A stretch of DNA of 64,000 nt. Origin: Actinomycetota bacterium (GTDB taxonomy: Bacteria > Actinomycetota > UBA4738 > HRBIN12). A program made the position numbers and the translations under genes. Every line of letters begins with the position of its first letter. Within the stretch, counting starts at the first letter, position 1. The stretch covers positions 8,523-72,522 of the forward strand of contig JAJPHY010000054.1 in the NCBI GenBank assembly GCA_021325015.1, in the 5' to 3' direction. The notes beneath the pieces are model-generated. The model was not told the origin of the DNA, did no database searches, and worked only from the letters and a program-made list of their open reading frames with translations. This document shows positions 1-12,221 of the stretch, in pieces.

Positions 1-1057
1 ACAGGATGGCGAGCGCCGCGAGGACGATCACGCCGTTCGAGAACACCAGCCGGTCTCCGCGGTTGGCGAACTGACGCGGCATGAACCGGTCGCGCGCGAG
101 GATCGCCGACAGGCGCGGGAAGTCCTGGTAGGAGGTGTTGGCCGCCAGCACCAGGATCATCGTCGTGAAGATCTGCACGAGGTAGAAGCCGATCCCTCCC
201 CCGAACGTCGCGTGCGCGACCTGCGCCACCACCGAGCGCTCGTCGGACACCGTGACGTGCATCCGGCTGGCGAGGAACGAGATGCCGAGGAACATGGTGA
301 TCGCGATCGCGCCCATCATCGCGAGGGTCTCCGCCGCGTTCCTCGCCTGGGGGCGGCGGAACGCCGGCACCCCGTTGGAGATCGCCTCCACTCCCGTGAG
401 CGCCGTGGATCCCGACGAGAAGGCTCGCAGCACGATGAACAGGCCGACCGGCCCGGCGACCTTCGCCAGGTCGGCGGCGGGGGGGACGGGCTCGGCGAGC
501 GGACAGCCGCCGACGCACCGGGCGAGGCCTATCGCGACCATCGTGAGGATCGAGACGATGAACGCGTAGGTCGGGAAGGCGAACAGCGTCCCGGACTCCC
601 GAACCCCGCGGAGGTTCGCCAGGGTGATGAAGATCACGAACCCGATCGACAGCTCGACCTTGTAGGGGAGCAGGCTCGTCGCGGCCGACGTCAGGGCGAA
701 GACCCCCGCCACGATCGACACCGCGACCGTGAGCACGTAGTCGGTGAGCAGGGCCCCGGCCGCGATCAGGCCCGGGATGGTCCCGAGGTTCTCCTTGCTC
801 ACGATGTAGGCGCCGCCGCCGTTCGGATACGCCCGAACGGTCTGCCGGTACGAGGCCACGACGATCGCCATCAGGATCGCGATGGCCGCGGCGATCGGCA
901 TCACGTACCGGTAGGCGTAGGCCGCCAGCGTCGCCCCGAGCAGGACGTGCAGGATCTCCTCGGTCGCGTACGCAACGGAGGACAGGGCGTCCGAGGAGAA
1001 CACCGGCAGGGCCAGGATCTTCGGCAGGAGGGTGTGCTCCAGGCGCTGGCTGGCCAT
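1..1057 (-). CDS. APC-superfamily permease, KimA-like K+ uptake transporter paralog. The N-terminal ~350 aa is present; the C-terminus runs past the window edge.
   Basis: Hand translation of the minus strand from ATG at 1057 gives MASQRLEHTLLPKILALPVFSSDALSSVAYATEE...GDRLVFSNGVIVLAALAIL. This aligns residue by residue with the permease at 3427..5931. The first in-frame upstream stop leaves no other start. The + strand ORFs 212..1195 and 252..569 are off-frame artefacts. Confidence 0.7.
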   Translation of the reverse strand, partial: MASQRLEHTLLPKILALPVFSSDALSSVAYATEEILHVLLGATLAAYAYRYVMPIAAAIAILMAIVVASYRQTVRAYPNGGGAYIVSKENLGTIPGLIAAGALLTDYVLTVAVSIVAGVFALTSAATSLLPYKVELSIGFVIFITLANLRGVRESGTLFAFPTYAFIVSILTMVAIGLARCVGGCPLAEPVPPAADLAKVAGPVGLFIVLRAFSSGSTALTGVEAISNGVPAFRRPQARNAAETLAMMGAIAITMFLGISFLASRMHVTVSDERSVVAQVAHATFGGGIGFYLVQIFTTMILVLAANTSYQDFPRLSAILARDRFMPRQFANRGDRLVFSNGVIVLAALAIL

Positions 1058-1139
1058 GGCCCGGCCGACGAGGACCCGCTTCAGGAGGCTGCCGGTGGTG
1101 GTGCGCTGCCGCTCCCCGATGGCGATGGTCCTGCGGATT

Positions 1140-1865
1140 CTAGTTCGAGCGCTCCGCGATCCACCGGTAGCCGACGCCCGGCTCGGTCAGGATGAGCGCG
1201 GGCGCCGCGGCGGCGTCTCCGAGCTTGCGCCGCAGGGCGCGCACGTACACGCGGAGGTAGTGGCTCTCCTGTCCGTATCCCCGTCCCCAGACCTTTCGGA
1301 GCAGCCACTGGTGGGTGAGGAGCTTGCCGGGGTTGGTCACGAGCGCTTCGAGCAGCGCGTACTCGGTCGGCGTGAGGTGGACGAGCTCGCCGCGGAGCGT
1401 GACGCGGCGGCGGGCGAGATCCACCTCGAGGTCTCCGTACCGCTGCAGCGCCGGCGCCGGCTCCTCCGGTTGCGCACGGCGAAGCTGGGCGCGAAGCCGC
1501 GCGAGCACCTCTTCCATGCCGAAGGGCTTCGTCACGTAGTCGTCGGCGCCGGCGTCGAGCGCCGCCACCTTGTCGGCCTGCTGGTCCCGAACCGAGAGCA
1601 CGATCACCGGCACGTCCGAGAACGCGCGGAGCCGCCGAATCACCTCGGTGCCGTCGAGGTCGGGCAGCCCGAGGTCCAGGAACACCAGGTCGGGCGCGCG
1701 CTCGGCCGCGGCGACGAGCGCCTCCTCCCCGTTTGCCGCGGTCCGGACCGCGTAACCGTGCGCCTCGAGGCTCGTGCGGAGCGCGCGGCGGATCTGCGGC
1801 TCGTCGTCGACCACGAGCACCGTGGTGCCGGACCCTCCCGCAAACGGAGCCCGGAGCGAGCTCAC
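1140..1865 (-). CDS. kdpE: OmpR/KdpE-family response regulator (receiver plus winged-helix domain)
   Basis: The C-terminal 240 aa of ORF 1140..2837 read VLVVDDEPQIRRALR...LDLGLPDLDG...DDYVTKPF...LTPTEYALLEAL. The GTG start at 1865 overlaps the kinase TGA stop (GTGA). An alternative GTG lies 15 codons downstream (VLVVDDE). Confidence 0.8.
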   Translation of the reverse strand: MSSLRAPFAGGSGTTVLVVDDEPQIRRALRTSLEAHGYAVRTAANGEEALVAAAERAPDLVFLDLGLPDLDGTEVIRRLRAFSDVPVIVLSVRDQQADKVAALDAGADDYVTKPFGMEEVLARLRAQLRRAQPEEPAPALQRYGDLEVDLARRRVTLRGELVHLTPTEYALLEALVTNPGKLLTHQWLLRKVWGRGYGQESHYLRVYVRALRRKLGDAAAAPALILTEPGVGYRWIAERSN

Positions 1866-3316
1866 GACGCCGGCTCCTGCGGCACCGGCCCCGCGTCCGC
1901 GATCGGCAGCTCGAACACGACCGCCGTTCCGCCTCCCGGCGCCCCCTCGATCCAGATCCGTCCGCCGTGGGCGAGCACGATCGCGCGCGCGATCGCGAGG
2001 CCGAGCCCGCTCCCGCGCCGGCCGTCGGCCCCCTCGCCCCGCACGAACGGCTCGAACGCCCGCTCGCGCTCCCCCGGGGGGATGCCCGGCCCCTGGTCGA
2101 CCACCCGCACCTGGATCGCCCGATGCCAGAGCGAGGCCGAGACCACGACCTCGCCTCCCGGCGGCGAGAACCGCGCGGCGTTCTCGAGGAGGTTCGTGAG
2201 GACCTGATCGATCTGGACCGGATCGATCGGCACCTCCGGCAGGTCCGGCCGGATCACCGTCCGCACCGCGAGCCCCTCGAGCGTCGGCGCCATCCGGTGC
2301 AGGACCGACTCGATCACCTCCTCGATCGAGGTCGGCTCCTTCGCCGGCACGAGCGCGCCGGCTCGCACCCGGGCGAGGTCCAGGATGTTGCCGACCAGCC
2401 GGTTGAGGCGGTCCGTCTCCTCGAGCACGGTCGCGAGCAGCTCGCGCTGCTGCCCCGGATCGTGGGTCGTCGTCGCGTCGAGCAGGCTCGTGACGCTCGC
2501 CTTGATCGAGGCGAGCGGCGTGCGCAGGTCGTGGGTGACCGAGGAGAACAGCGCCGCGCGAAGCTGACTGGTCTCGGATTGGACGAGCGCGGCCCGGACC
2601 TGGACGTCCAGCCTCGCCCGCTCGACGGCCACCGCCACCTGACGAGCACAGGCCTCGAGCAGGTGCAGGTCGGACCCGGCCAGCCGGTCCAGGCTCGCAC
2701 GACGGACGGCGGTGAGGGTTCCGAACGGGACGTTCGCGACCACGATCGGCACGACCGTCGAGAGGCCGGGGTCGGCCCCCGGCTGCTCGGCCGCGCCGTC
2801 GAACCGAACCTCGTCGGTGCCCACGTGGATCTCGCACCGAGCCAGCCCGAACGGCTCGAGCAGGGCCTGCGCGAAGTCGGTCAGGACGCGCTCGAGCGGC
2901 TCGGCCGACAGCAGCCGCGAGGCGAGGTAGTTGAGCAGGCGCGTCTCCTGCTCCCGCCGCGAGGCGCGGCTCCGCTCCTCGAGCGCGCGCGCGAGGAGCA
3001 GCCCGACGATCGACGCCACGACGAGGAACACCCCGAGCGCCAGCCAGTCCTCCACCTTGGCGACGCGGAAGGTGTCGAGTGGCGGCGTGAAGAAGAAGTT
3101 CAGCCCGAGAAACGAGAGGAGCGCCGCGCCCAGGCCGCTCGGCGTCCCGCCCACGGCCGCCGCGGCCACGACGCCGAGCAGATACAGCGACGTCGAGGCG
3201 ACGGCGCCGTAGGAGCGGAGCGCCAGGGCGAGGAGCGTCGCCGCCGCGGGGGTCAGGACGGCGGCGAGGACCGACCGCTCGGCTGAGGCTCGGCCCGGAC
3301 GGAACGGCTCCCTCAT
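1862..3316 (-). CDS. kdpD: KdpD-like sensor histidine kinase, C-terminal half only (4TM, GAF-like, HisKA, HATPase_c). It lacks the N-terminal KdpD/Usp sensor domains.
   Basis: H-box FSSVTHDLRTPLASI, N-box LLENAARFS, and G-boxes DQGPGIPPGE and GSGLGLAIARAIVLAHGG are close to E. coli KdpD. The protein is 484 aa versus ~890 aa for full KdpD. Confidence 0.85.
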   Translation of the reverse strand: MREPFRPGRASAERSVLAAVLTPAAATLLALALRSYGAVASTSLYLLGVVAAAAVGGTPSGLGAALLSFLGLNFFFTPPLDTFRVAKVEDWLALGVFLVVASIVGLLLARALEERSRASRREQETRLLNYLASRLLSAEPLERVLTDFAQALLEPFGLARCEIHVGTDEVRFDGAAEQPGADPGLSTVVPIVVANVPFGTLTAVRRASLDRLAGSDLHLLEACARQVAVAVERARLDVQVRAALVQSETSQLRAALFSSVTHDLRTPLASIKASVTSLLDATTTHDPGQQRELLATVLEETDRLNRLVGNILDLARVRAGALVPAKEPTSIEEVIESVLHRMAPTLEGLAVRTVIRPDLPEVPIDPVQIDQVLTNLLENAARFSPPGGEVVVSASLWHRAIQVRVVDQGPGIPPGERERAFEPFVRGEGADGRRGSGLGLAIARAIVLAHGGRIWIEGAPGGGTAVVFELPIADAGPVPQEPAS

Positions 3317-3323
3317 CTCGGCA

Positions 3324-3389
3324 TCACGCTAGCCGTTTTCACGCGTTCTTCACGCTCCCGCCCGCGGCTTTCACGCCGCGCTTACACGC
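3324..3389. promoter_or_regulatory. Array of five (T)TCACGC direct repeats in the divergent kdpD / K+ permease promoter; candidate response-regulator (KdpE-like) operator
   Basis: CACGC occurs at 3325, 3340, 3351, 3372 and 3385, spaced 15, 11, 21 and 13 nt, the last in TTACACGC form. OmpR-family regulators bind direct repeats with ~10-11 bp periodicity. Confidence 0.4.
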
Positions 3390-3426
3390 CTGGTTCGAAG
3401 CTCGGGGCAGAGAGGACGGCGGTAAG

Positions 3427-5931
3427 ATGGCGATCCGAGAGCGCACGGGGCACGCGGAGCCGCAGGCGCGGCCCGAGCCGGACGGGCGATCGCGCGCCGA
3501 GGGGCGACGGGCCCTTCCTCAGGGCCCGGCCTACCTGGTGAAGCGGGCGATCCTGGGCCCGCCGATCCCCACGCACCGGCTCATCCACGAGCGGCTGGGC
3601 AAGTTCCTCGCCCTGCCCATCTTCTCCTCGGACGCACTGTCCTCGGTGGCCTACGCGACCGAGGAGATGCTCCGCGTGCTCGTTCCCGTGTCGGCCGCGG
3701 CGGCGTTCGCCCTCGTGTTCCCGATCTCGATCGCGATCGGCATCGTCCTGCTCGCGTTGATCTTCAGCTACCGGCAGACGATCAAGGCGTACCCGTCGGC
3801 CGGCGGCGCCTACATCGTCACCAAGGACAACTTCGGGCTCTTGCCGGCGCAGGTCGCCGGGGTCGCGCTCCTCACCGACTACGTGCTGACCGTCGCGGTC
3901 TCGATCTCGGCGGGCGTGGCGGCCATCGTCACGGTCTACACCGGCCTGTACCCGTTCCGCGTGTGGATGGCGGTCGGGTTCCTCGCGATCCTCATGTGGG
4001 GGAACCTGCGGGGCGTCAAGGAGTCCGGACGGCTCTTCGCCTCGCCGACCTACGTGTTCATCTTCATGATCTTCTCGCTCCTCGCCGTCGCGGCGTTCAA
4101 GCTCGCGACCGGGCACCTCCAGCCGGCGGCCCCCCCGCCGTCGGCGACCGGCCACGGGCTCCTGTACGGCGTCTCGCTGTTCGTGGTGCTCCGAGCGCTC
4201 GCCTCGGGATCGACCGCGATGACGGGCGTCGAGGCGATCTCCAACGGCGTCCCCGCGTTCCGGCCCCCCGAATGGAGGAACGCCCGCGCGACGCTGCTGA
4301 TCATGGGCGCGATCCTCGGAACGATGTTCCTCGGCATCTCGTACGTGGCCCACCGCCTCCTGATCGTCCCGGATCCCTCCGAGCGCAAGACCGTGCTCGG
4401 GATGATCGCGCGCGAGGTGTTCGGACCCACCGGGCTCGGGCACGCCGCATTCTTCCTCCTCCAGATCGCGACGATGGCGGTCCTGGTCCTCGCGGCCAAC
4501 ACGTCGTTCGCCGACTTCCCGAGGCTCGCGAACTTCCACGCCGGCGACTCGTTCATGCCGAGGCAGTTCACGCGTCGGGGGCACCGGCTCGTGTTCTCGA
4601 ACGGGATCCTCGCGCTCGGCGCGGCCGCCGGGCTCATGATCGTGGGCTTCCAGGCCAACGTGACGCGGCTGATCCCCTTCTACGCGATCGGGGTATTCAC
4701 GTCGTTCTCGATGTCGCAGGCGGGAATGGCCAAGCGACACTGGAAGCTGCGCGAGCCCGGATGGCGTCGCGGGATCGCGATCAACGGCTTCGGCGCGCTC
4801 GCCACGGCGGTCGTCGACGTGGTCATCATCATCACGAAGTTCTCCGAGGGGGGATGGGTGATCCTCGTCCTCGTCCCGATCCTGGTGTGGCTGCTGGTCC
4901 GGATGAACCACCGCTACGAGCGCGAGCGCCGAGAGCTCGAAGAGCACCTCGAACCGTTCGACCGGTCAACGATCCGCAAGCCCGCGGTGGTCCTGCTCGT
5001 CGAGGACCTCGACCGCAAGACCATGCACGCGCTCCAGTACGCCAAGACCATCCGGCCGGAGAGCGTCTCCGCGGTGCACTTCGCCGGCGCCCGGGGGACC
5101 GACGGACTCGAGCAGCGGTGGCGGGAGCTCGGCATCGACGTCCCGTTGAAGGTCGTCCGCTGCGACGGCCACCTGCCGAGCGCGCTCGCCGGCTTCGTGA
5201 GCTCGGTCCCCGAGGGCCGGGACGTGAACGTGATCGTCCCCGGCCCCGCGCGGATGGGGATCTGGGAACGGCTCCGCCGCGGCCGGACGGGCGCGCAGCT
5301 CGCGCGGGCCCTCCTGCCGTACGGGCGCGTGCGCGTGACGACGGTCAAGGATCACCCGGGGCCAGGGCACATGGTCACCGAATCCGTCGGCGGTCGGACC
5401 CGCCTGCGCGTCGTCCCGCGGAGCAGCCACCGGGTCATCGTGCTGGTCGACAAGGTCGATCGCGCCGTGATCCGCGCCGTCCGGTACGCGCTCTCGCTCG
5501 GTGCGACCGACGTGTGGGCGGTGCACGCGGCCGTGGACCCCGATCTCCAGGAGCACGTGATCCGCCGGTGGATGGAGCTCGGACTGCCCGTTCCGCTCGA
5601 CGTCATCGAGTGCTGGGACCGGAACGTCCCGCGCGCCCTCGAGCGCTACGTGGCCGAACAGACCGGAACGGACTGCGAGGTCACGATCGTCATGCCGAGG
5701 CGCGACTACGCGCAGCTCCGACAGCGCATCCTGCACGACCGGACGAGCCGCAGGATCGCGCAGGCGCTCGGCCGCTACGAGCACGTCGACCTCGCCGTCG
5801 TTCCCTTCTACTTCGACAAGGTCCACGCGGCGGACCGACCCCGACCCGTCGAGGCGCCCGAGTCCACCACCCCCCTCCCCTCGGGCGCCTCGATCCCATC
5901 CGGCAACGGCCAGGCGGGTCGGATAAGCTGA
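3427..5931 (+). CDS. APC-superfamily KimA-like K+ transporter with a C-terminal cytoplasmic extension of two USP-like domains
   Basis: Twelve-TM core with LALPIFSSDALSSVAYATEE. The C-terminal ~350 aa hold two repeats with USP signatures (VVLLVEDLDRKTMHALQYA...VNVIVPG and RVIVLVDKVDRAVIRAVRYA...EVTIVMPRR). The true start may be GTG 3538, because the first ~37 aa are not conserved in the paralog. Confidence 0.8.
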   Translation: MAIRERTGHAEPQARPEPDGRSRAEGRRALPQGPAYLVKRAILGPPIPTHRLIHERLGKFLALPIFSSDALSSVAYATEEMLRVLVPVSAAAAFALVFPISIAIGIVLLALIFSYRQTIKAYPSAGGAYIVTKDNFGLLPAQVAGVALLTDYVLTVAVSISAGVAAIVTVYTGLYPFRVWMAVGFLAILMWGNLRGVKESGRLFASPTYVFIFMIFSLLAVAAFKLATGHLQPAAPPPSATGHGLLYGVSLFVVLRALASGSTAMTGVEAISNGVPAFRPPEWRNARATLLIMGAILGTMFLGISYVAHRLLIVPDPSERKTVLGMIAREVFGPTGLGHAAFFLLQIATMAVLVLAANTSFADFPRLANFHAGDSFMPRQFTRRGHRLVFSNGILALGAAAGLMIVGFQANVTRLIPFYAIGVFTSFSMSQAGMAKRHWKLREPGWRRGIAINGFGALATAVVDVVIIITKFSEGGWVILVLVPILVWLLVRMNHRYERERRELEEHLEPFDRSTIRKPAVVLLVEDLDRKTMHALQYAKTIRPESVSAVHFAGARGTDGLEQRWRELGIDVPLKVVRCDGHLPSALAGFVSSVPEGRDVNVIVPGPARMGIWERLRRGRTGAQLARALLPYGRVRVTTVKDHPGPGHMVTESVGGRTRLRVVPRSSHRVIVLVDKVDRAVIRAVRYALSLGATDVWAVHAAVDPDLQEHVIRRWMELGLPVPLDVIECWDRNVPRALERYVAEQTGTDCEVTIVMPRRDYAQLRQRILHDRTSRRIAQALGRYEHVDLAVVPFYFDKVHAADRPRPVEAPESTTPLPSGASIPSGNGQAGRIS

Positions 5932-5938
5932 CGCGGCG

Positions 5939-6598
5939 ATGCGGGTGATCATCGTTGGGTGCGGGAGGGTCGGCTCCGAGCTGACCATCCAGCTCGCCAA
6001 GGCCGGCCACGACGTGACGATCATCGACAAGCGCCCCTCGGCGTTCGACCGCCTGCCGCCGGGGTTCGAGGCGCGAACGATGGTCGGGTTCGGGTTCGAC
6101 CGCGAGCTGCTCGAGGAGGCGGGGATCAAGGACGCCGACGCGTTCATCGCGGTGACCAACGGTGACAACTCGAACATCGTGGCGGCCCGCGTGGCGCGCG
6201 AGCACTACCACGTGCCGAAGGTCATCGCCCGGATCTACGACCCCCGACGGGCCGAGATCTACGAGCGACTGAACATCCCCACGGTGGCGACGACGACCTG
6301 GGGCGTGAAGCAGATCATGCTGATGCTGTCGCACGCCCGCGAGGAGATCAAGGAGAGCCTCGCCGGCGGCGACCTGTTCCGGATGCGGATCGGCGTCCCC
6401 GGGCACCTGGTCGGCAAGCCCGTCAACCGGCTGAACGTCGACGGCAAGGTCGTCGTGGTGGCGGTCGATCGCGGCGGGCACGGGTTCATCCCGGTCGCCT
6501 CGAGCACGTTCCAGGAGGGGGACTTCGTCGGCCTGATCGTGCACAAGGACGCGCTCGAGCTCCTCGACGAACTCCTGGCCCCGACCGTGGAGCACTGA
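5939..6598 (+). CDS. trkA: TrkA-N/TrkA-C K+ transport regulatory subunit (ceoB-like)
   Basis: Begins MRVIIVGCGRVGSELTIQLAKAGHDVTIIDK with a Rossmann GxGxxG motif. The C-terminal TrkA-C (RCK_C) domain is present. Confidence 0.85.
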   Translation: MRVIIVGCGRVGSELTIQLAKAGHDVTIIDKRPSAFDRLPPGFEARTMVGFGFDRELLEEAGIKDADAFIAVTNGDNSNIVAARVAREHYHVPKVIARIYDPRRAEIYERLNIPTVATTTWGVKQIMLMLSHAREEIKESLAGGDLFRMRIGVPGHLVGKPVNRLNVDGKVVVVAVDRGGHGFIPVASSTFQEGDFVGLIVHKDALELLDELLAPTVEH

Positions 6599-6599
6599 G

Positions 6600-7295
6600 A
6601 TGCGCGTGGTGATCTCCGGAGCCGGGGCCGTCGGACGCCACCTGGCGTCCGACCTTCGTCTGCGCGGTCACGATGTGCTGCTGATCGAGCAGGACCCGGC
6701 CACGCTCAAGGAGGCCAAGGAGTGGGCGCCCGACGTCGAGTACGTGCTCGGCGACGCGTGCGAGCTCTGGGTGCTCGAGAAGGCGAACCTGAAAACCGCG
6801 GACGTCGTCGTGGCCTCGACCGGGGACGACGAGGACAACCTGGTGACCTCGCTCCTCGCCAAGCAGGAGTACGCGGTCCCCCGCGTGCTCGCCCGGGTGA
6901 ACCACCCGCGCAACGAGTGGATGTTCACCGAGCAGTGGGGGGTGGACGTCGCCGTCTCGGTCCCCCACCTGCTCACGGCGCTCGTGGAGGAGGCGGTGAC
7001 CGTCGGCGACCTCGTCCGCCTGCTGCGTCTGGAGGGCGGCCGGGTGGCGCTGGTCGAGCTCACGATGCCCGACACGTCGCCCAACGCCGGCCGCCCGATC
7101 TACGAGCTCCGTCTGCCCGCCGACTCGGCGATCGTGGCCGTGCTCCGCGAGGGCCACGTGGTCATCCCGCAGCCCGAGTCGGTGATCGCGGCGGGGGACG
7201 AGGTCCTCGCCCTGTCCTCGGCCGAGTCGGAGGCGGCGCTCAGGCTGGCGATCGTCGGCGAGGGCGTCCCCGGCGGCTCGCCGCTCGACGAGTAG
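6600..7295 (+). CDS. trkA: TrkA-N/TrkA-C K+ transport regulatory subunit (ceoC-like)
   Basis: Begins MRVVISGAGAVGRHLASDLRLRGHDVLLIEQD, with a C-terminal RCK_C domain. The ATG lies 1 nt after the upstream stop. Confidence 0.85.
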   Translation: MRVVISGAGAVGRHLASDLRLRGHDVLLIEQDPATLKEAKEWAPDVEYVLGDACELWVLEKANLKTADVVVASTGDDEDNLVTSLLAKQEYAVPRVLARVNHPRNEWMFTEQWGVDVAVSVPHLLTALVEEAVTVGDLVRLLRLEGGRVALVELTMPDTSPNAGRPIYELRLPADSAIVAVLREGHVVIPQPESVIAAGDEVLALSSAESEAALRLAIVGEGVPGGSPLDE

Positions 7296-7800: not shown

Positions 7801-10065
7801 TCAGGAGACGGCCGCCTCCTCCTTGGTCGTCTCGCGCGGGATCAGCAGCTCGCTCTTGCGGGCCTTCGAGATCCAGATCGCGGCCGCGAGGAGCACGGCC
7901 GCCGCCGCCGCGAACAGGAACCGCAGCGACCCGTCCCGAAACTCGACGACGAGCGGTGCGATCAACAGGGCGACGAGGTTCATGACCTTGATCATCGGGT
8001 TGAGCGCCGGACCGGCCGTGTCCTTGAAGGGGTCACCGACCGTATCGCCGATGACGGCGGCCCTGTGCTGCTCGCTGTTCTTGCCGCCGTAGTGGCCGGC
8101 CTCGACGTACTTCTTGGCGTTGTCCCAGGCCCCGCCGGAGTTCGACAGCATGACCGCCAGAAGCTGGCCGGTCAGGATCGCTCCCGCGAGGAACGCCCCG
8201 AGCGCCTCGGCCTTGAGGAGGAACCCCACGATCACCGGCGCCAGCACTGCGAGCAGGCCGGGCGTCATCAGCTCGCGGAGCGAGGTCTTCGTGCAGATGT
8301 CGACCACGCGCGCGTACTCGGGCTTCTCGGTGTAGTCCATGATTCCCGGGTGCTCGCGGAACTGGTTCCGCACCTCCACGACCACCTGCGAGGCGGCTCG
8401 GCCGACCGCGCGGATCGCGAGCGAGGAGAACAGGAACCCCACCGCGCCGCCGACGAGCAGCCCGACCAGCACGTCCGGCCGATCGACGGGGATCGGGAAC
8501 TCCTGGAGGTTGCCCTTGCCGAGCGCCTTCAGCACGGCGTCGGCGAACGACCCGAACAGCGAGGTCGCGGCGATCACGGCGGTCGCGATCGCCATGCCTT
8601 TGGTGATGGCCTTGGTCGAGTTCCCGATGGCGTCGAGGCCCGTGAGGATCTCCGCCGGACGCCCCTCGAACTCGCCGGACATCTCGGCGATGCCCTGCGC
8701 GTTGTCGGAGACCGGTCCGTACGTGTCCATCGACACGATGACGCCCACGGTCGTGAGCATCCCCATCCCGGTGAGCGAGATGAAGTACAGGCGCTCGAAG
8801 TTGTTGTTGCCGAGCAGGTACGCTCCGGTCACGGCGGCCGCGATCACCAGGATCGCCCACACCGTCGACTCGAGCCCGACCGAGAAGCCCGACAGGATCG
8901 TCGTCGCCGGGCCCGTCTGGGTGGCCTCGGCGATCTCGCGCACCGGCTTGTACTTGGTGTCGGTGAAGTACTGCGTGAGGATCTGGATGACCGAGGCGAG
9001 GATCAGTCCGAACAGCACGGCGACCGCCGGCCGGTAGTCCTTCATGTACCAACCGGCGATCACGAAGACGGCCGCCGCCGAGAGACCGGCCGACACGAAG
9101 AACCCGCGGTTGATCGACTTCATCCCGTGCTCGTCCTCGCTCCGGGGCGAGACCGCAAGGATGCCGACGATCGACGTGATCACGCCGACGGCGCGGACGA
9201 ACAGCGGGAACATCACGCCGCCGATCGCGCCGACCTGCGAGCCGGCGAACGCGGACGCGCCGAGGATCAGCGAGGCGACGAGCGTGACCTCGTAGGACTC
9301 GAACAGGTCGGCCGCCATCCCGGCGCAGTCGCCGACGTTGTCGCCCACGTTGTCGGCGATCACGGCCGCGTTGCGCGGGTCGTCCTCGGGGATCCCCTTC
9401 TCCACCTTGCCGACGAGGTCGGCCCCGACGTCGGCCGCCTTGGTGAAGATCCCGCCGCCCACCCGCATGAACATCGCGAGGAGCGCCCCGCCGAACCCGA
9501 AGCCGACGAGCACGTCGGTCGCGTCGGTCTTGTACACGATCAGGATCACGGTGGCCCCGAGAAGCCCCAGCCCGACGGTGAACATCCCCGCCACCCCGCC
9601 GGCGCGGAAGGCCAGCCGCATCGCGCGCCGCAGGCCCGATTCCCGCGCCGCATCGGCCACCCGGACGTTCGCGCGCACGGCCAGCCACATGCCCGTGAAC
9701 CCGGTGATCCCGGAGAAGCCCGCGCCCAGGATGAAGGCGATCGAGCGCCCGAACCGGATGAACAGGTCGCCGTGCACGGCGCCCTCGGGCACCGGCAGCA
9801 GGAAGAAGATCGCCACCGTGAGGATGACCAGGAACACACCCACCGTGGTGAACTGCCGCCGCAGGTAGGCGCTCGCCCCCTCCTGGATCGCCCGCGCGAT
9901 CTCCTTCATCTTGTCCGTGCCCTGGGGCGCGGCGAGCACCTCGCGTACCAGGTAGTAGGCGAAGAGCAGCGCGATCAGCGAGATGCCCAGGATGATCCAG
10001 AGCGCCCTGTCTTCGAACGAGCCGAACACCGCCTTGATCGGCCCGCCCTCGGCGGCCAGGTACAT
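7801..10065 (-). CDS. hppA: Membrane-bound H+-translocating inorganic pyrophosphatase (V-PPase), probably the K+-independent type
   Basis: MYLAAEGGPIKAVFGS...ADNVGDNVGDCAGMAADLFESYEV...DAIGNSTKAITKG, where the Lys in the GNxxKA motif marks the K+-independent type. ATG 10065 is preceded by GAGGAGG. ORF 7801..10725 carries a spurious ~220 aa N-terminal extension. Confidence 0.9.
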   Translation of the reverse strand: MYLAAEGGPIKAVFGSFEDRALWIILGISLIALLFAYYLVREVLAAPQGTDKMKEIARAIQEGASAYLRRQFTTVGVFLVILTVAIFFLLPVPEGAVHGDLFIRFGRSIAFILGAGFSGITGFTGMWLAVRANVRVADAARESGLRRAMRLAFRAGGVAGMFTVGLGLLGATVILIVYKTDATDVLVGFGFGGALLAMFMRVGGGIFTKAADVGADLVGKVEKGIPEDDPRNAAVIADNVGDNVGDCAGMAADLFESYEVTLVASLILGASAFAGSQVGAIGGVMFPLFVRAVGVITSIVGILAVSPRSEDEHGMKSINRGFFVSAGLSAAAVFVIAGWYMKDYRPAVAVLFGLILASVIQILTQYFTDTKYKPVREIAEATQTGPATTILSGFSVGLESTVWAILVIAAAVTGAYLLGNNNFERLYFISLTGMGMLTTVGVIVSMDTYGPVSDNAQGIAEMSGEFEGRPAEILTGLDAIGNSTKAITKGMAIATAVIAATSLFGSFADAVLKALGKGNLQEFPIPVDRPDVLVGLLVGGAVGFLFSSLAIRAVGRAASQVVVEVRNQFREHPGIMDYTEKPEYARVVDICTKTSLRELMTPGLLAVLAPVIVGFLLKAEALGAFLAGAILTGQLLAVMLSNSGGAWDNAKKYVEAGHYGGKNSEQHRAAVIGDTVGDPFKDTAGPALNPMIKVMNLVALLIAPLVVEFRDGSLRFLFAAAAAVLLAAAIWISKARKSELLIPRETTKEEAAVS

Positions 10066-10268
10066 GGAGGTCCCCTCCTCGGATTGTTGGTGAAGAAGCC
10101 TTCTATCCTGCGGAAACCCCGGGATTATAGGTGGAAGCCCTCGCCGCCGACCCCGGTCGAACGGAGGGCGTTTCCGGGGGTCCAACGCGGGGTGCCGCGT
10201 GCGGGGCATCCGGGCCGCGGCCGGCGTGCGGAGGGGGCGGGTGCGGACGCTCGCTCGTGTCGCAAGGG

Positions 10269-12026
10269 TCACGTGAGCGGCCCGACGACCGCGCCGAGCT
10301 CGCGGTCGAGGTCCTCCAGCCCGGCACGGAGGGCGTGCCCCGCGGCGGCGACCTCCTCCGCGTGCTCCGCGCTTCGCTCCCGCTCCTCCTGCGCGCGACG
10401 AACGCCCGCGCGGAGGCTCTCGACCGTGCTCGAAAGACGGTCCACGAGCTCGCGCTCGAGCGCGCGCACGCTCTGGTCCAAGCGCGTGACGAAGTCGTAG
10501 CGGAGCCGACCCATGTGCTTGTCGACCAGCCGTGGGATCGCCTCCATCACGTCCCGCTCCACGAGCTTGCGGGCCACCTTCCTCGGGAGGTACCGCCGCA
10601 GGTCGGGAAGGAGCGACTCCAGAATGGTCGGGACCTCGAAGAAGGAGTAGGAGAACTCGGTCCTCCGCGAGAGCTCGACGCGGGCCACCCCGGTCTCGAG
10701 GCGGATCCCGAGGATGTCGCCGCACACGCGGACGGTCTCCTCCGCGATCTGCTCGGCCTCCTGGACGAACCGGGCGGTCGCCTTCCGGAACGCCTCGGCC
10801 ACCCGCCGATCCTCGGCCCCTCGCCAGCGGTCGACGTCGGCGCGCAGCCGGGCCCGCACGAGCTCGTCCAGCTCGGAGCCCATCGTTCGGACCTCCTCCG
10901 CCCGGTCCAGGAACTCGCGGGCCACCCGACGGAGCTGATCCTCCTCGCGCCGTCGCAGCGCCTCGAGGTCGGCCTCGATCGTCGCGACCAGCCGGTCGCG
11001 CTCCTTCCGCACGAGCGCCCGTACGTCGTCCTGGCGCTCGGCCGCGCGGGCGAAGACCCGCTCCATCTCCTCGACGCGGCGGGCGAGGTCCTCCTGCGGC
11101 AAGGCCGCCGCCCGCTCCTCCACGTCGATCGAGTTCCGGAGGTCGGCGATCAGCCGCCGCGCGCGCTCGGCGACCGACTCCAGGATCGTGCCTCCCTTCT
11201 CGCGGAGCAGGAACGCCCGGAAGTCGCGCTCGAACGCTGGGAGCCCTGAGTCCTCCAGCGCCGTCGGGTCGGCTTCAAGCTTGGCGCGCAGCGCGTTCCG
11301 GGCGCTCACCGGGTACAGGCGAACCTCGTGGCCCACGGCATCGGCGATCACGCCTCGGGTGAACTCGATCGCCTCCTCGCGATCGGACTCGGACAGATAG
11401 TCGACCTTGTTCAGGACGAAGAACATCCGGGCCGCCTCCTCCCGCACCTCCCGGAGGAACGCCCGCTCGGCGTCGGAGATCGGCGGATCGGCCGTCGTGA
11501 GGAAGATCGCGGCGTCGGCCTCAGGCACGAACGCCCGGGCCGCCTCGGTGTTGTGGGCGTAGACGCTCCCCACGCCCGGCGTGTCGACCAGGAACACGCC
11601 GTCGCGGAGCTCCTCGGCCGGGTAGTGGAGGACGGCGCGCTCCACGCCCCGGCGGTTCTCGGGGTTCCCACGCTCCGTGACGAAGGCGGCGAGCTCGTCG
11701 ACACCGATCGGCTCGACCCGGCCGCCCGTACGCACCACCTCCGCGCGGACCTCATCGCCCCAGGTCACCGCCGTGACGACCGAGGTGAGCGGGACGACGG
11801 CGGAGGGCAGGACCTCCGCGCCGAGCAGCGCGTTGACGAACGTGGTCTTTCCCCGCTTGAACTCGCCGACCACCACCACGTTGAAGCGTTCCTCGGCGAG
11901 CTTGTTCGACAGCGCTCGGCAGGCCTCCGCCACTCCGTGCCCGTTGCGCCGCTCGGCGAGCTCGGCGAGTCGAGCGAGGAGCGCGGTGAGGCGGTCGCGG
12001 CCCTCCGCGTACGTCCGGTCCCCCAT
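10269..12026 (-). CDS. Bacterial dynamin-like GTPase (BDLP, IniA/IniC-like)
   Basis: P-loop VVGEFKRGKTTFVNALLG, switch motif DTPGVGS and NKVD, followed by a long coiled-coil stalk region. The SD AGGAG lies 5 nt before the ATG. Confidence 0.8.
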   Translation of the reverse strand: MGDRTYAEGRDRLTALLARLAELAERRNGHGVAEACRALSNKLAEERFNVVVVGEFKRGKTTFVNALLGAEVLPSAVVPLTSVVTAVTWGDEVRAEVVRTGGRVEPIGVDELAAFVTERGNPENRRGVERAVLHYPAEELRDGVFLVDTPGVGSVYAHNTEAARAFVPEADAAIFLTTADPPISDAERAFLREVREEAARMFFVLNKVDYLSESDREEAIEFTRGVIADAVGHEVRLYPVSARNALRAKLEADPTALEDSGLPAFERDFRAFLLREKGGTILESVAERARRLIADLRNSIDVEERAAALPQEDLARRVEEMERVFARAAERQDDVRALVRKERDRLVATIEADLEALRRREEDQLRRVAREFLDRAEEVRTMGSELDELVRARLRADVDRWRGAEDRRVAEAFRKATARFVQEAEQIAEETVRVCGDILGIRLETGVARVELSRRTEFSYSFFEVPTILESLLPDLRRYLPRKVARKLVERDVMEAIPRLVDKHMGRLRYDFVTRLDQSVRALERELVDRLSSTVESLRAGVRRAQEERERSAEHAEEVAAAGHALRAGLEDLDRELGAVVGPLT

Positions 12027-12031
12027 CGAGC

Positions 12032-12058
12032 GCTCCTACCCCCGCCATCGGTAGGAGC
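12032..12058. promoter_or_regulatory. Palindrome GCTCCTACC-N9-GGTAGGAGC, 5 nt upstream of the dynamin-like gene start and containing its SD
   Basis: Read directly from the sequence. A near-identical copy at 12195..12221 abuts the ATG of the divergent gene. Confidence 0.45.
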
Positions 12059-12104
12059 CATCAGCCCGGAGCGGGCGGTCGGCGGGCCCCATCGCCTGTT
12101 GTGG

Positions 12105-12132
12105 AGTATAGGCATCGGTCCCTCCTATACTG
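12105..12132. promoter_or_regulatory. Inverted repeat AGTATAGG-N12-CCTATACT in the centre of the divergent promoter
   Basis: Perfect 8-bp arms read from the sequence. The element is AT-rich and -10-like (TATAGG / TATACT). Confidence 0.35.
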
Positions 12133-12194
12133 CGTCGGGCGATTCGTTCGCCCGAGGCGATGGAGCTCGCCGAACCGCTCGACGTGAGCTGATA

Positions 12195-12221
12195 GCTCCT
12201 ACCCGTCGGGGAGGTAGGGGC
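12195..12221. promoter_or_regulatory. Palindrome GCTCCTACC-N9-GGTAGGGGC directly abutting ATG 12222 and containing the SD
   Basis: Read directly from the sequence. It is a twin of the element at 12032..12058. Confidence 0.45.

Follow-up and report, generated by a model that had tools for sequence, protein, structure and literature searches.

In Escherichia coli, the response regulator KdpE binds a site in the kdpFABC promoter that reads TTTATAC-TTTT-TTTACAC (TTTATA-N5-TTTACA) and is located at positions -72 to -50 (PMC3264566). A 22-bp KdpE site of Mycobacterium smegmatis, CCGTAAAGAAACCATCAAGGCC in PkdpF, was defined by an electrophoretic mobility shift assay and by DNase footprinting, and its authors called it A-rich and saw no likeness to other KdpE sites (PMC5401905). 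In both organisms KdpE is an activator (PMC3264566; PMC5401905). The pho boxes consist of 11-nt direct repeat units, with the sequence CTGTCAT in E. coli and GTTCACC in Streptomyces coelicolor (PMC4415409). Here we compare with these systems a cluster of short direct repeats found in a 64,000-nt stretch of DNA (hereafter the window, meaning the whole stretch that was analysed) from the Actinomycetota bacterium assembly GCA_021325015.1, contig JAJPHY010000054.1. The cluster is located between a gene for a truncated KdpD-like sensor kinase, which is followed by the gene of a KdpE-like response regulator, and a divergently transcribed operon, kimA-trkA1-trkA2, which encodes a KimA-family potassium (K+) permease and two RCK proteins.

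We consider it likely that these repeats are a two-box KdpE-type operator of the adjacent regulator, and that phosphorylated dimers of this regulator bind both boxes and activate the promoter of the K+ importer. The predicted functional unit is a set of four 7-bp half-sites in two 11-bp-phased pairs, and not five equal repeats. The repeats, their geometry, orientation and conservation, the identities of the surrounding genes and the co-variation of the half-sites with the regulator were observed in the DNA and in related loci, as described below.

A pattern search of the window found CACGC on the plus strand at 3325, 3340, 3351, 3372 and 3385, which confirmed the positions given in a preliminary description of this DNA, and the start-to-start gaps were 15, 11, 21 and 13 nt. 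All five copies are in the 110-nt intergenic region, 3317-3426, which is bounded by the start codons of the kinase gene (ATG at 3316, minus strand) and of the permease gene (ATG at 3427), and the plus strand from 3320 to 3390 reads ggcaTCACGCtagccgttTTCACGCgttcTTCACGCtcccgcccgcggctTTCACGCcgcgcttACACGC. Four copies extend to TCACGC (3324, 3339, 3350 and 3371) and three to TTCACGC (3338, 3349 and 3370), and the fifth copy is spelled ACACGC. When both strands of the 64-kb window were scanned, this was the sole site with at least three CACGC in 61 nt of a single strand. Five CACGC in 61 nt of one strand occurred in 3 of 1000 first-order Markov simulations of the window, four TCACGC in 48 nt occurred in 1 of 1000 such simulations, and when the mononucleotides of the 110-nt intergenic region were shuffled 100,000 times, at least five CACGC occurred once. 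In the window as a whole, TCACGC was observed 75 times compared to 63 expected, and the genome has a GC content of 72%. The CACGC cluster is not a chance product, and no second box or array was found elsewhere in the window by a half-site scan of either strand.

The distal box (3338-3355, plus strand) is composed of half-site 1, TTCACGC at 3338-3344, which is TTCACGS or CTTACGG in orthologues, and half-site 2, TTCACGC at 3349-3355, which starts 11 nt after half-site 1. Half-site 2 is the best conserved of the half-sites, and cTTCACG is invariant across the 19 closest loci. The proximal box (3370-3387, plus strand) is composed of half-site 3, TTCACGC at 3370-3376, which starts 21 nt after half-site 2 and overlaps the predicted -35 position of the importer promoter, and half-site 4, CTTACAC at 3381-3387, which starts 11 nt after half-site 3. 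The four half-sites have the same orientation, and because the period is 11 bp within the pairs and 21 bp, or two helical turns, between half-sites 2 and 3, they are expected to be on one face of the DNA. In close orthologues (L001, L002, L003 and L005), half-site 4 is CTTACGC or TTTACGC, and the alignment is gapless through the next 15 nt. An alternative fifth repeat, TACACGC at 3383 with a 13-nt spacing, was considered and rejected, as the close orthologues keep CTTACGC at 11 nt in the gapless alignment. Judged from this alignment, the CACGC at 3385 is a by-product of a G-to-A difference and is 2 nt out of register. Therefore, of the five (T)TCACGC repeats at helical spacings that were initially described, the four TCACGC, the three TTCACGC and the gaps of 11 and 21 nt stand, whereas the last half-site follows at 11 and not 13 nt, the fifth copy is out of register, and the first copy, 15 nt before the next, is out of helical phase and likely belongs to the kinase promoter.

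Orthologous loci were collected with a profile built from 25 kinase homologues, which gave 80 loci (numbered with an L) from species-representative genomes. The intergenic regions were oriented like the window, and four half-sites were sought at offsets of 0, 11, 32±2 and 43±2. It was found that the offsets were exactly 0/11/32/43, an indel-free 7-4-7-14-7-4-7 layout, in 43 of the 45 regions with a score of at least 19. Of 47 loci, 35 scored at least 22, a value that was the maximum among 940 shuffled controls. The mean pairwise identity of the half-sites was 0.65, in comparison to 0.33 to 0.56 in four spacer or flank segments (0.39 in the middle 14-nt spacer and 0.56 in the 4-nt spacer of the distal box). 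The A at half-site position 4 was present in all four half-sites of 37/37 loci, and the family consensus is yTyACGs. An unseeded, strand-specific count of hexamers in the 45 regions found 71 TTCACG compared to 6.7 expected, and CTTACG and CCTTAC were enriched 30-fold and 37-fold. The comparison of orthologous intergenic regions, which had been suggested as a check, thus found the array to be conserved.

The prevailing arrangement in the actinobacterial loci is a kinase-regulator pair transcribed divergently from trkA1-trkA2, with or without a kimA ahead of trkA1, and a second permease gene, kimA2, is often 3′ of the regulator gene. A search of both strands of 766 kb of related loci found that 39 of 41 arrays were directly upstream of a short kinase gene and pointed to the transporter operon. 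An exception is L026, in which the array has moved behind the regulator gene and is still aimed at a downstream gene. The array goes with the short kinase-regulator pair and not with any one order of transporter genes. That the array keeps its geometry in about 45 orthologous regions, and is aimed at the transporter operon in every case, agrees with the earlier proposal that the array controls the K+ importer, which we retain as a prediction. A search for the motif at large, also suggested earlier, was extended to a metagenome with the single box TTCACGNNNTCTTCACGC, and there nearly all of 120 matches were isolated chance matches and 5 were in full arrays, 3 of which adjoin a short kinase-regulator pair; a single box is too short to inform at this scale.

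The same 7-4-7-14-7-4-7 array was found in a metagenome-assembled genome of the Chloroflexia (L057, 3300-3420), with the half-sites CTTATCA, CTTATGT, TTTATGC and TTTACGG and the hexamer TACAAT 9 nt further on. This array is between a short KdpD-like kinase gene and an operon that opens with a receiver-only response regulator gene and kdpA, and the placement of the array ahead of kdpA connects the layout with the target for which KdpE is classically known. Among distant relatives of the kinase from Chloroflexota and Terriglobia (L052-L080), most had no array by this half-site model, with L057 and L064 as the only positives, and so it appears that conservation outside the Actinomycetota is patchy or that the half-sites have diverged there.

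The predicted -10 element of the kimA-trkA1-trkA2 promoter is GAAGCT (3397-3402, plus strand), which is exactly 9 nt after half-site 4, a gap that the close orthologues keep in a gapless alignment. The hexamer at this distance was (G/C)ANNCT in every locus, with A at position 2 and T at position 6 in 37/37, and the columns of this hexamer played no part in finding the arrays. Its first position was G or C, and never the consensus T, in 37/37 loci. At the same position, the lower-GC Chloroflexia locus L057 has the TACAAT mentioned above, and L026 has TACGCT. Transcription of the importer operon is predicted to start near 3409, which would give an 18-nt leader with a AGAGAGGA Shine-Dalgarno region. 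The proximal box, at about -39 to -22, would then occupy the site of a -35 element, and the distal box would be at about -71 to -54.

The first CACGC is most likely a part of the -10 element for a near-leaderless kinase mRNA and not of the operator. The predicted -10 of the kinase-regulator-kimA2 operon, TAGCGT (3326-3331, minus strand), is 9 nt before the kinase ATG and contains this copy, which is 14 nt ahead of half-site 1. In orthologues, the conserved part around the first copy is ACGCTA (TAGCGT on the kinase strand), which was enriched 28-fold. In 16 loci, 6-9 nt separate ACGCTA from the start codon of the kinase gene, and some of these loci have the array 25-45 nt further off. The sequence of L001 at this position is CCAAGC. 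Because ACGCTA at a fixed distance from the start codon is the signature of a leaderless or near-leaderless -10, we assigned 3326-3331 to the kinase promoter; leaderless or near-leaderless mRNAs are common in Actinomycetota. In this window, the distal box would cover about -21 to -39, the -35 region, of the predicted kinase promoter.

The regulator encoded next to the kinase is closest to KdpE. Its top match among solved structures was 6lgq (6.5e-66), the aligned residues of which are identical to E. coli KdpE; the match to E. coli KdpE 4KNY was 4e-65, and the next protein was MtrA, at 4.6e-46. As its score is under the KdpE equivalog cut-off of NCBIfam (see below), we regard the regulator as a KdpE-like paralogue and not as a certified orthologue. 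Its recognition helix, SHYLRVYVRALRRKL, and its wing, TEPGVGYRW, have retained the residues that correspond to R193, R200 and T215, which were required for DNA binding in a study of the KdpE DNA-binding domain (PMC3264566). In PhoB, residue V197, the equivalent of KdpE I194, makes base-specific contacts (PMC3264566). Regulators with Thr at the equivalent of E. coli I194 (helix YLRTY, 17 loci) had C at half-site position 3 in 67/68 half-sites, and those with Val or Ile (helix YLRVF or YVRIY) mostly had T. The similarity to KdpE, the KdpE-box-like half-sites and this helix co-variation bear out the earlier view of head-to-tail repeats of the OmpR/KdpE type, with binding as a prediction.

Like the E. 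coli KdpE site, each box here has two direct-repeat half-sites with an 11-bp period that point to the promoter of a K+ uptake system. Half-site 4, CTTACAC, is equal to the E. coli S2 half-site TTTACAC at 6/7 positions, and the predicted position of the distal box is near that of the E. coli site. Unlike in E. coli, there are two boxes instead of one, the second box overlaps the -35 position, and the half-sites are GC-richer (TTCACGC). The kinase also differs in that it lacks the KdpD-N and Usp domains, the regulator is under the KdpE equivalog threshold, and the target is kimA-trkA and not kdpFABC; a kdpFABC-upstream placement is found in L057 but not in the window, which has no kdpA and in which kimA-trkA1-trkA2 is downstream. 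The reverse complement of the M. smegmatis sequence CCGTAAAGAAACCATCAAGGCC reads GGCC-TTGATGG-TTTC-TTTACGG, which is a 7-4-7 direct repeat with an 11-bp period. Its half-sites have the form TTyAyGG, which also occurs among the loci of this study, where orthologues of the array carry TTTACGC and TTTACGG, and the E. coli and M. smegmatis sites share the general form T-T-y-A-y with the half-sites here; the M. smegmatis site differs from this array in being a single box before kdpFABC, at a SigF-type promoter.

The likeness to pho boxes is in the unit of 7 conserved and 4 variable nt, the tandem boxes, and the TTCAC core of the Streptomyces consensus. At pho boxes, bound PhoB recruits RNA polymerase and activates transcription, and the proximal box, some 10 bp away from the -10, serves instead of the -35. 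In contrast to pho boxes, which are contiguous, the boxes here are separated by 14 nt, the half-site flanks differ, there is no link to phosphate genes, and the regulator is KdpE-like and not PhoP-like. Regarding the flanks, the largest regulator group has G at position 6 in 62/64 of its half-sites, and the base before the core is C or T, not G. A further comparison is with kimA of Bacillus subtilis, which also encodes a KimA-family K+ transporter and has its expression tied to K+ status by a c-di-AMP (ydaO) riboswitch, whereas control in the window is predicted to be transcriptional, by means of a two-component regulator. No Rfam match in the window or in 3250-3500, searched at a permissive threshold, explained the repeats, and no ydaO riboswitch was found.

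In the mechanism that we infer, regulator binding, the promoter positions, activation and the K+ signal are predicted from these features. The truncated KdpD-like kinase would phosphorylate the adjacent KdpE-like regulator, and head-to-tail dimers of the regulator would fill both boxes on one face of the DNA. Because the proximal box ends 9 bp before the -10 without a usable -35, the proximal dimer would stand in for the absent -35 contact and recruit RNA polymerase in a PhoB-like manner, and the distal dimer would contribute cooperativity. The output would be that the kimA-trkA1-trkA2 operon for K+ uptake, with its KimA-type permease and two RCK proteins, is switched on. The signal is most likely K+ scarcity, by analogy with KdpD. 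Occupancy of the distal box would probably also feed back on the kinase-regulator-kimA2 operon, because this box overlaps the -35 region of the divergent kinase promoter in the window. Autoregulation, another suggestion of the preliminary description, is thus plausible on geometric grounds for this window.

Several observations weigh against a KdpE-type operator of the adjacent regulator or limit parts of this reading. The best NCBIfam model of the regulator, KdpE (NF007820), scored 247 bits, under the equivalog cut-off of 325. The regulator in the window is of the YLRVY type, for which C and T half-sites are mixed, and the co-variation of helix and half-site is confounded by phylogeny, as there are few independent lineages. 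Relatives differ in how far the array is from the kinase promoter, and so conservation does not support the autoregulatory part. A generic scan of 3150-3600 found neither a sigma-70 promoter nor a terminator, which is expected in an actinobacterium of 72% GC, and the promoters were therefore placed by conserved TANNNT-like hexamers. The remaining points concern which protein occupies the array. Genomes of relatives have a canonical full-length KdpD-KdpE pair beside the same locus, just beyond trkA2, that might bind the same boxes; the Streptomyces PHO boxes (GTTCACC) share the TTCAC core and have an equal 11-nt unit; and in an unrelated organism (L098, 3600-3720, a metagenome contig of 61% GC) an array of TTCACGC, TTCACGC, TTCACAC and TGCACGG precedes unrelated genes, for a receiver-domain protein and a phosphoketolase, so that TTCAC-type arrays are not confined to K+ loci and the motif class is not exclusive. 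It is conceivable on these grounds that the array is a real OmpR-family operator occupied by a canonical KdpE encoded elsewhere or by a PhoP- or MtrA-type regulator, with the adjacent pair having other targets. We consider this to be unlikely, as the array was found with the short kinase-regulator pair in 39/41 cases and in 3/5 of the metagenome arrays, the base at half-site position 3 varies together with the recognition helix of the neighbouring regulator, and the flanks depart from the PHO consensus at position 6 and before the core. Furthermore, no pst or pho genes were among the annotated neighbours, which are K+ transporter genes and the KdpDE-like pair instead, and no other gene for an OmpR-type regulator and no canonical KdpD was found within the window.

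The adjacent regulator could also bind the array and repress the importer by occluding the -35, with shut-off, for example, at high K+. The proximal box, at about -39 to -22, is where many regulators repress, but the importer promoter has no recognisable -35, and in 37/37 loci its -10 does not begin with the consensus T, a combination that is typical of promoters dependent on an activator. From pho boxes at an equal distance from the -10, PhoB is established to activate, and KdpE activates in E. coli and M. smegmatis. Repression is accordingly an improbable outcome, about as much so as occupation by another regulator. A five-site array, in which the five CACGC are equivalent binding sites, is more doubtful still. 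The five copies are nearly identical in the window, and a sub-clade of relatives has an additional TTCACG 17-18 nt upstream of half-site 1; on the other side, the first copy is out of helical phase and is replaced by CCAAGC in L001, ACGCTA keeps its distance to the kinase start codon in loci with a more remote array as well, and the fifth copy is 2 nt off the register of all close orthologues. Finally, the repeats might be a functionless feature of chance or composition, or part of an RNA in a 5′ leader, and this we regard as hardly credible. All that favours chance is that short GC-rich words recur in such a genome (the 75 TCACGC compared to 63 expected), whereas the simulations and the deep conservation of sequence, spacing and orientation between variable spacers are against it. 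As for an RNA, there was no Rfam match, and the array is upstream of both predicted -10 elements, where it is not expected to be transcribed. We therefore favour the two-box operator of the adjacent regulator, acting as an activator.

The kinase (484 aa; 1862-3316, minus strand) begins with a DUF4118 domain, followed by a weak GAF or GAF-like domain, HisKA and HATPase_c in Pfam searches. Its best NCBIfam model was KdpD, with 204.7 bits in the C-terminal part only. The components of a canonical KdpD from DUF4118 through the GAF-like linker to HisKA and HATPase_c are thus present, and the KdpD-N (PF02702) and Usp domains ahead of DUF4118 are absent by Pfam; the earlier label of a kdpD-like gene was right in substance, for what is a truncated paralogue. 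Homologues of similar length (about 480 aa) numbered more than 5000 and were found in uncultured Actinomycetota. The N-terminal part of E. coli KdpD is reported to be a serine kinase that acts on KdpB. Its absence here fits a paralogue that does not serve a Kdp pump, and L057 indicates that the short form can also adjoin kdp genes. Neither the KdpD N-terminal domain nor kdpA was found in the window, which thus has no canonical kdp system.

The regulator gene (241 aa, OmpR family; 1140-1865, minus strand) starts with a GTG that overlaps the kinase stop (GTGA). Directly 3′ of it is kimA2 (1-1138, minus strand), which encodes a second KimA-family permease of the AA_permease_2 type and runs off the left end of the window, and this kinase-regulator-kimA2 arrangement recurs in related loci. 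In the 1057-1138 segment of kimA2 (minus strand), no ATG, GTG or TTG was found 5′ of the conserved N-terminal LLKRxLxG motif, and the first canonical start, an ATG at 1057, would cut off this motif, which suggests that the start is non-canonical (ATC or CTG) or that translation is coupled to the regulator gene ending at 1140.

On the other side of the array, kimA (834 aa; 3427-5931, plus strand) encodes an AA_permease_2 protein (Pfam) that matched B. subtilis KimA, 6S3K, at 1.1e-114. In the alignment, it keeps 8/8 of the K+-site residues of KimA, namely D36, Y43, D117, T121, S125, T230, E233 and Y377, according to a residue list taken from a preprint. The downstream genes trkA1 (5939-6598) and trkA2 (6600-7295), both on the plus strand, each encode an RCK protein with TrkA_N and TrkA_C domains (Pfam and NCBIfam). 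The labels of K+ permease and trkA operon that these genes had been given were likewise right in substance. The permease is longer than B. subtilis KimA, which has 607 aa, and its residues of about 476-575 and about 670-798 each align to the C-terminal cytoplasmic domain of KimA, so that this domain appears to be duplicated.

Further from the array, two fluoride riboswitches are back to back at 12045-12105 (minus strand) and 12147-12208 (plus strand), with scores of 47.2 and 48.7 bits and a gathering score of 34. The minus-strand riboswitch precedes a gene for a dynamin-family GTPase (10269-12026) and then a gene for a membrane H+-pyrophosphatase (within 7801-10725). It is unusual for the first gene after a fluoride riboswitch to be dynamin-like, and the pyrophosphatase is a plausible fluoride-sensitive target.

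Other features were observed in the related loci. The canonical pair beyond trkA2 is present in L014 (75-3259) and also in L009, L013 and L023, where a KdpD of 833 aa (KdpD-N, Usp, DUF4118, HisKA and HATPase) and KdpE are encoded in convergent orientation to trkA2, and these genomes hold the canonical KdpD-KdpE and the short paralogue side by side. In another set of loci (L017, L020-L022, L026, L028, L029, L031-L033, L036, L039-L044 and L047), a small conserved open reading frame between the array and kimA encodes a single-helix membrane peptide, G-x-L-V-G-P-x-x-R-S-W-x-x-W-R-E, in a position that recalls kdpF; it is absent from the window.

Loci in which the gene that follows the array is trkA1 (L006, L009, L010, L012-L014, L019, L023-L025, L027, L030, L054, L058, L161 and L177) have a conserved element in a leader of 260-370 nt, for example at 4600-4830 of L014 (minus strand), and this element is not present in the window. 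It consists of GGA(AAGA)GG, then CTTTCCTCCGAG, and then a hairpin whose CCCUCC loop is invariant, and it has two CCUCC motifs that resemble an anti-Shine-Dalgarno sequence. RNAalifold predicted 31 pairs from 7 sequences, 6 of them with compensatory changes. There was no Rfam match at the gathering threshold and no credible weaker match. We regard the element as a candidate for an unannotated RNA that would regulate K+ uptake genes in cis.

The kind of element described here is known, as an OmpR/PhoB-family operator that is KdpE-box-like, and its mechanism is no surprise. In the literature searched, we found no description of the truncated KdpD paralogue, of a KimA/TrkA target, or of the invariant double-box layout. 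The analysis provides a regulon prediction for uncultured Actinomycetota, made up of a defined kinase-regulator pair, a 50-bp operator and a target operon, and it would link KdpDE-type sensing to K+ uptake by KimA and RCK proteins, an ordinary kind of switch with non-textbook wiring. Two results may apply to the wider family. On its complementary strand, the published mycobacterial KdpE site that was called unlike others has the standard 7-4-7 form of a KdpE box, and a recognition code may be proposed in which Thr corresponds to C, and Val or Ile to T, at half-site position 3.

Our broadest interpretation is tentative, and we would place it slightly on the doubtful side of an open question. 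It holds that a KdpD/KdpE paralogue without KdpD-N and Usp has been rewired from the Kdp ATPase to a KimA permease and an RCK pair, and that the operator is an obligate two-dimer operator, as suggested by the invariant 7-4-7-14-7-4-7 layout and by the proximal box that replaces the -35. This interpretation bears on the membrane partner of the TrkA-only "Trk" systems of actinobacteria such as mycobacteria, and neither the rewiring nor a KimA-like partner for such systems was described in the literature searched. If it is true, TrkH-less actinobacterial "Trk" systems (TrkA pairs of the CeoB/CeoC type) would work with KimA-like permeases, under the dedicated control of a K+-sensing two-component system.

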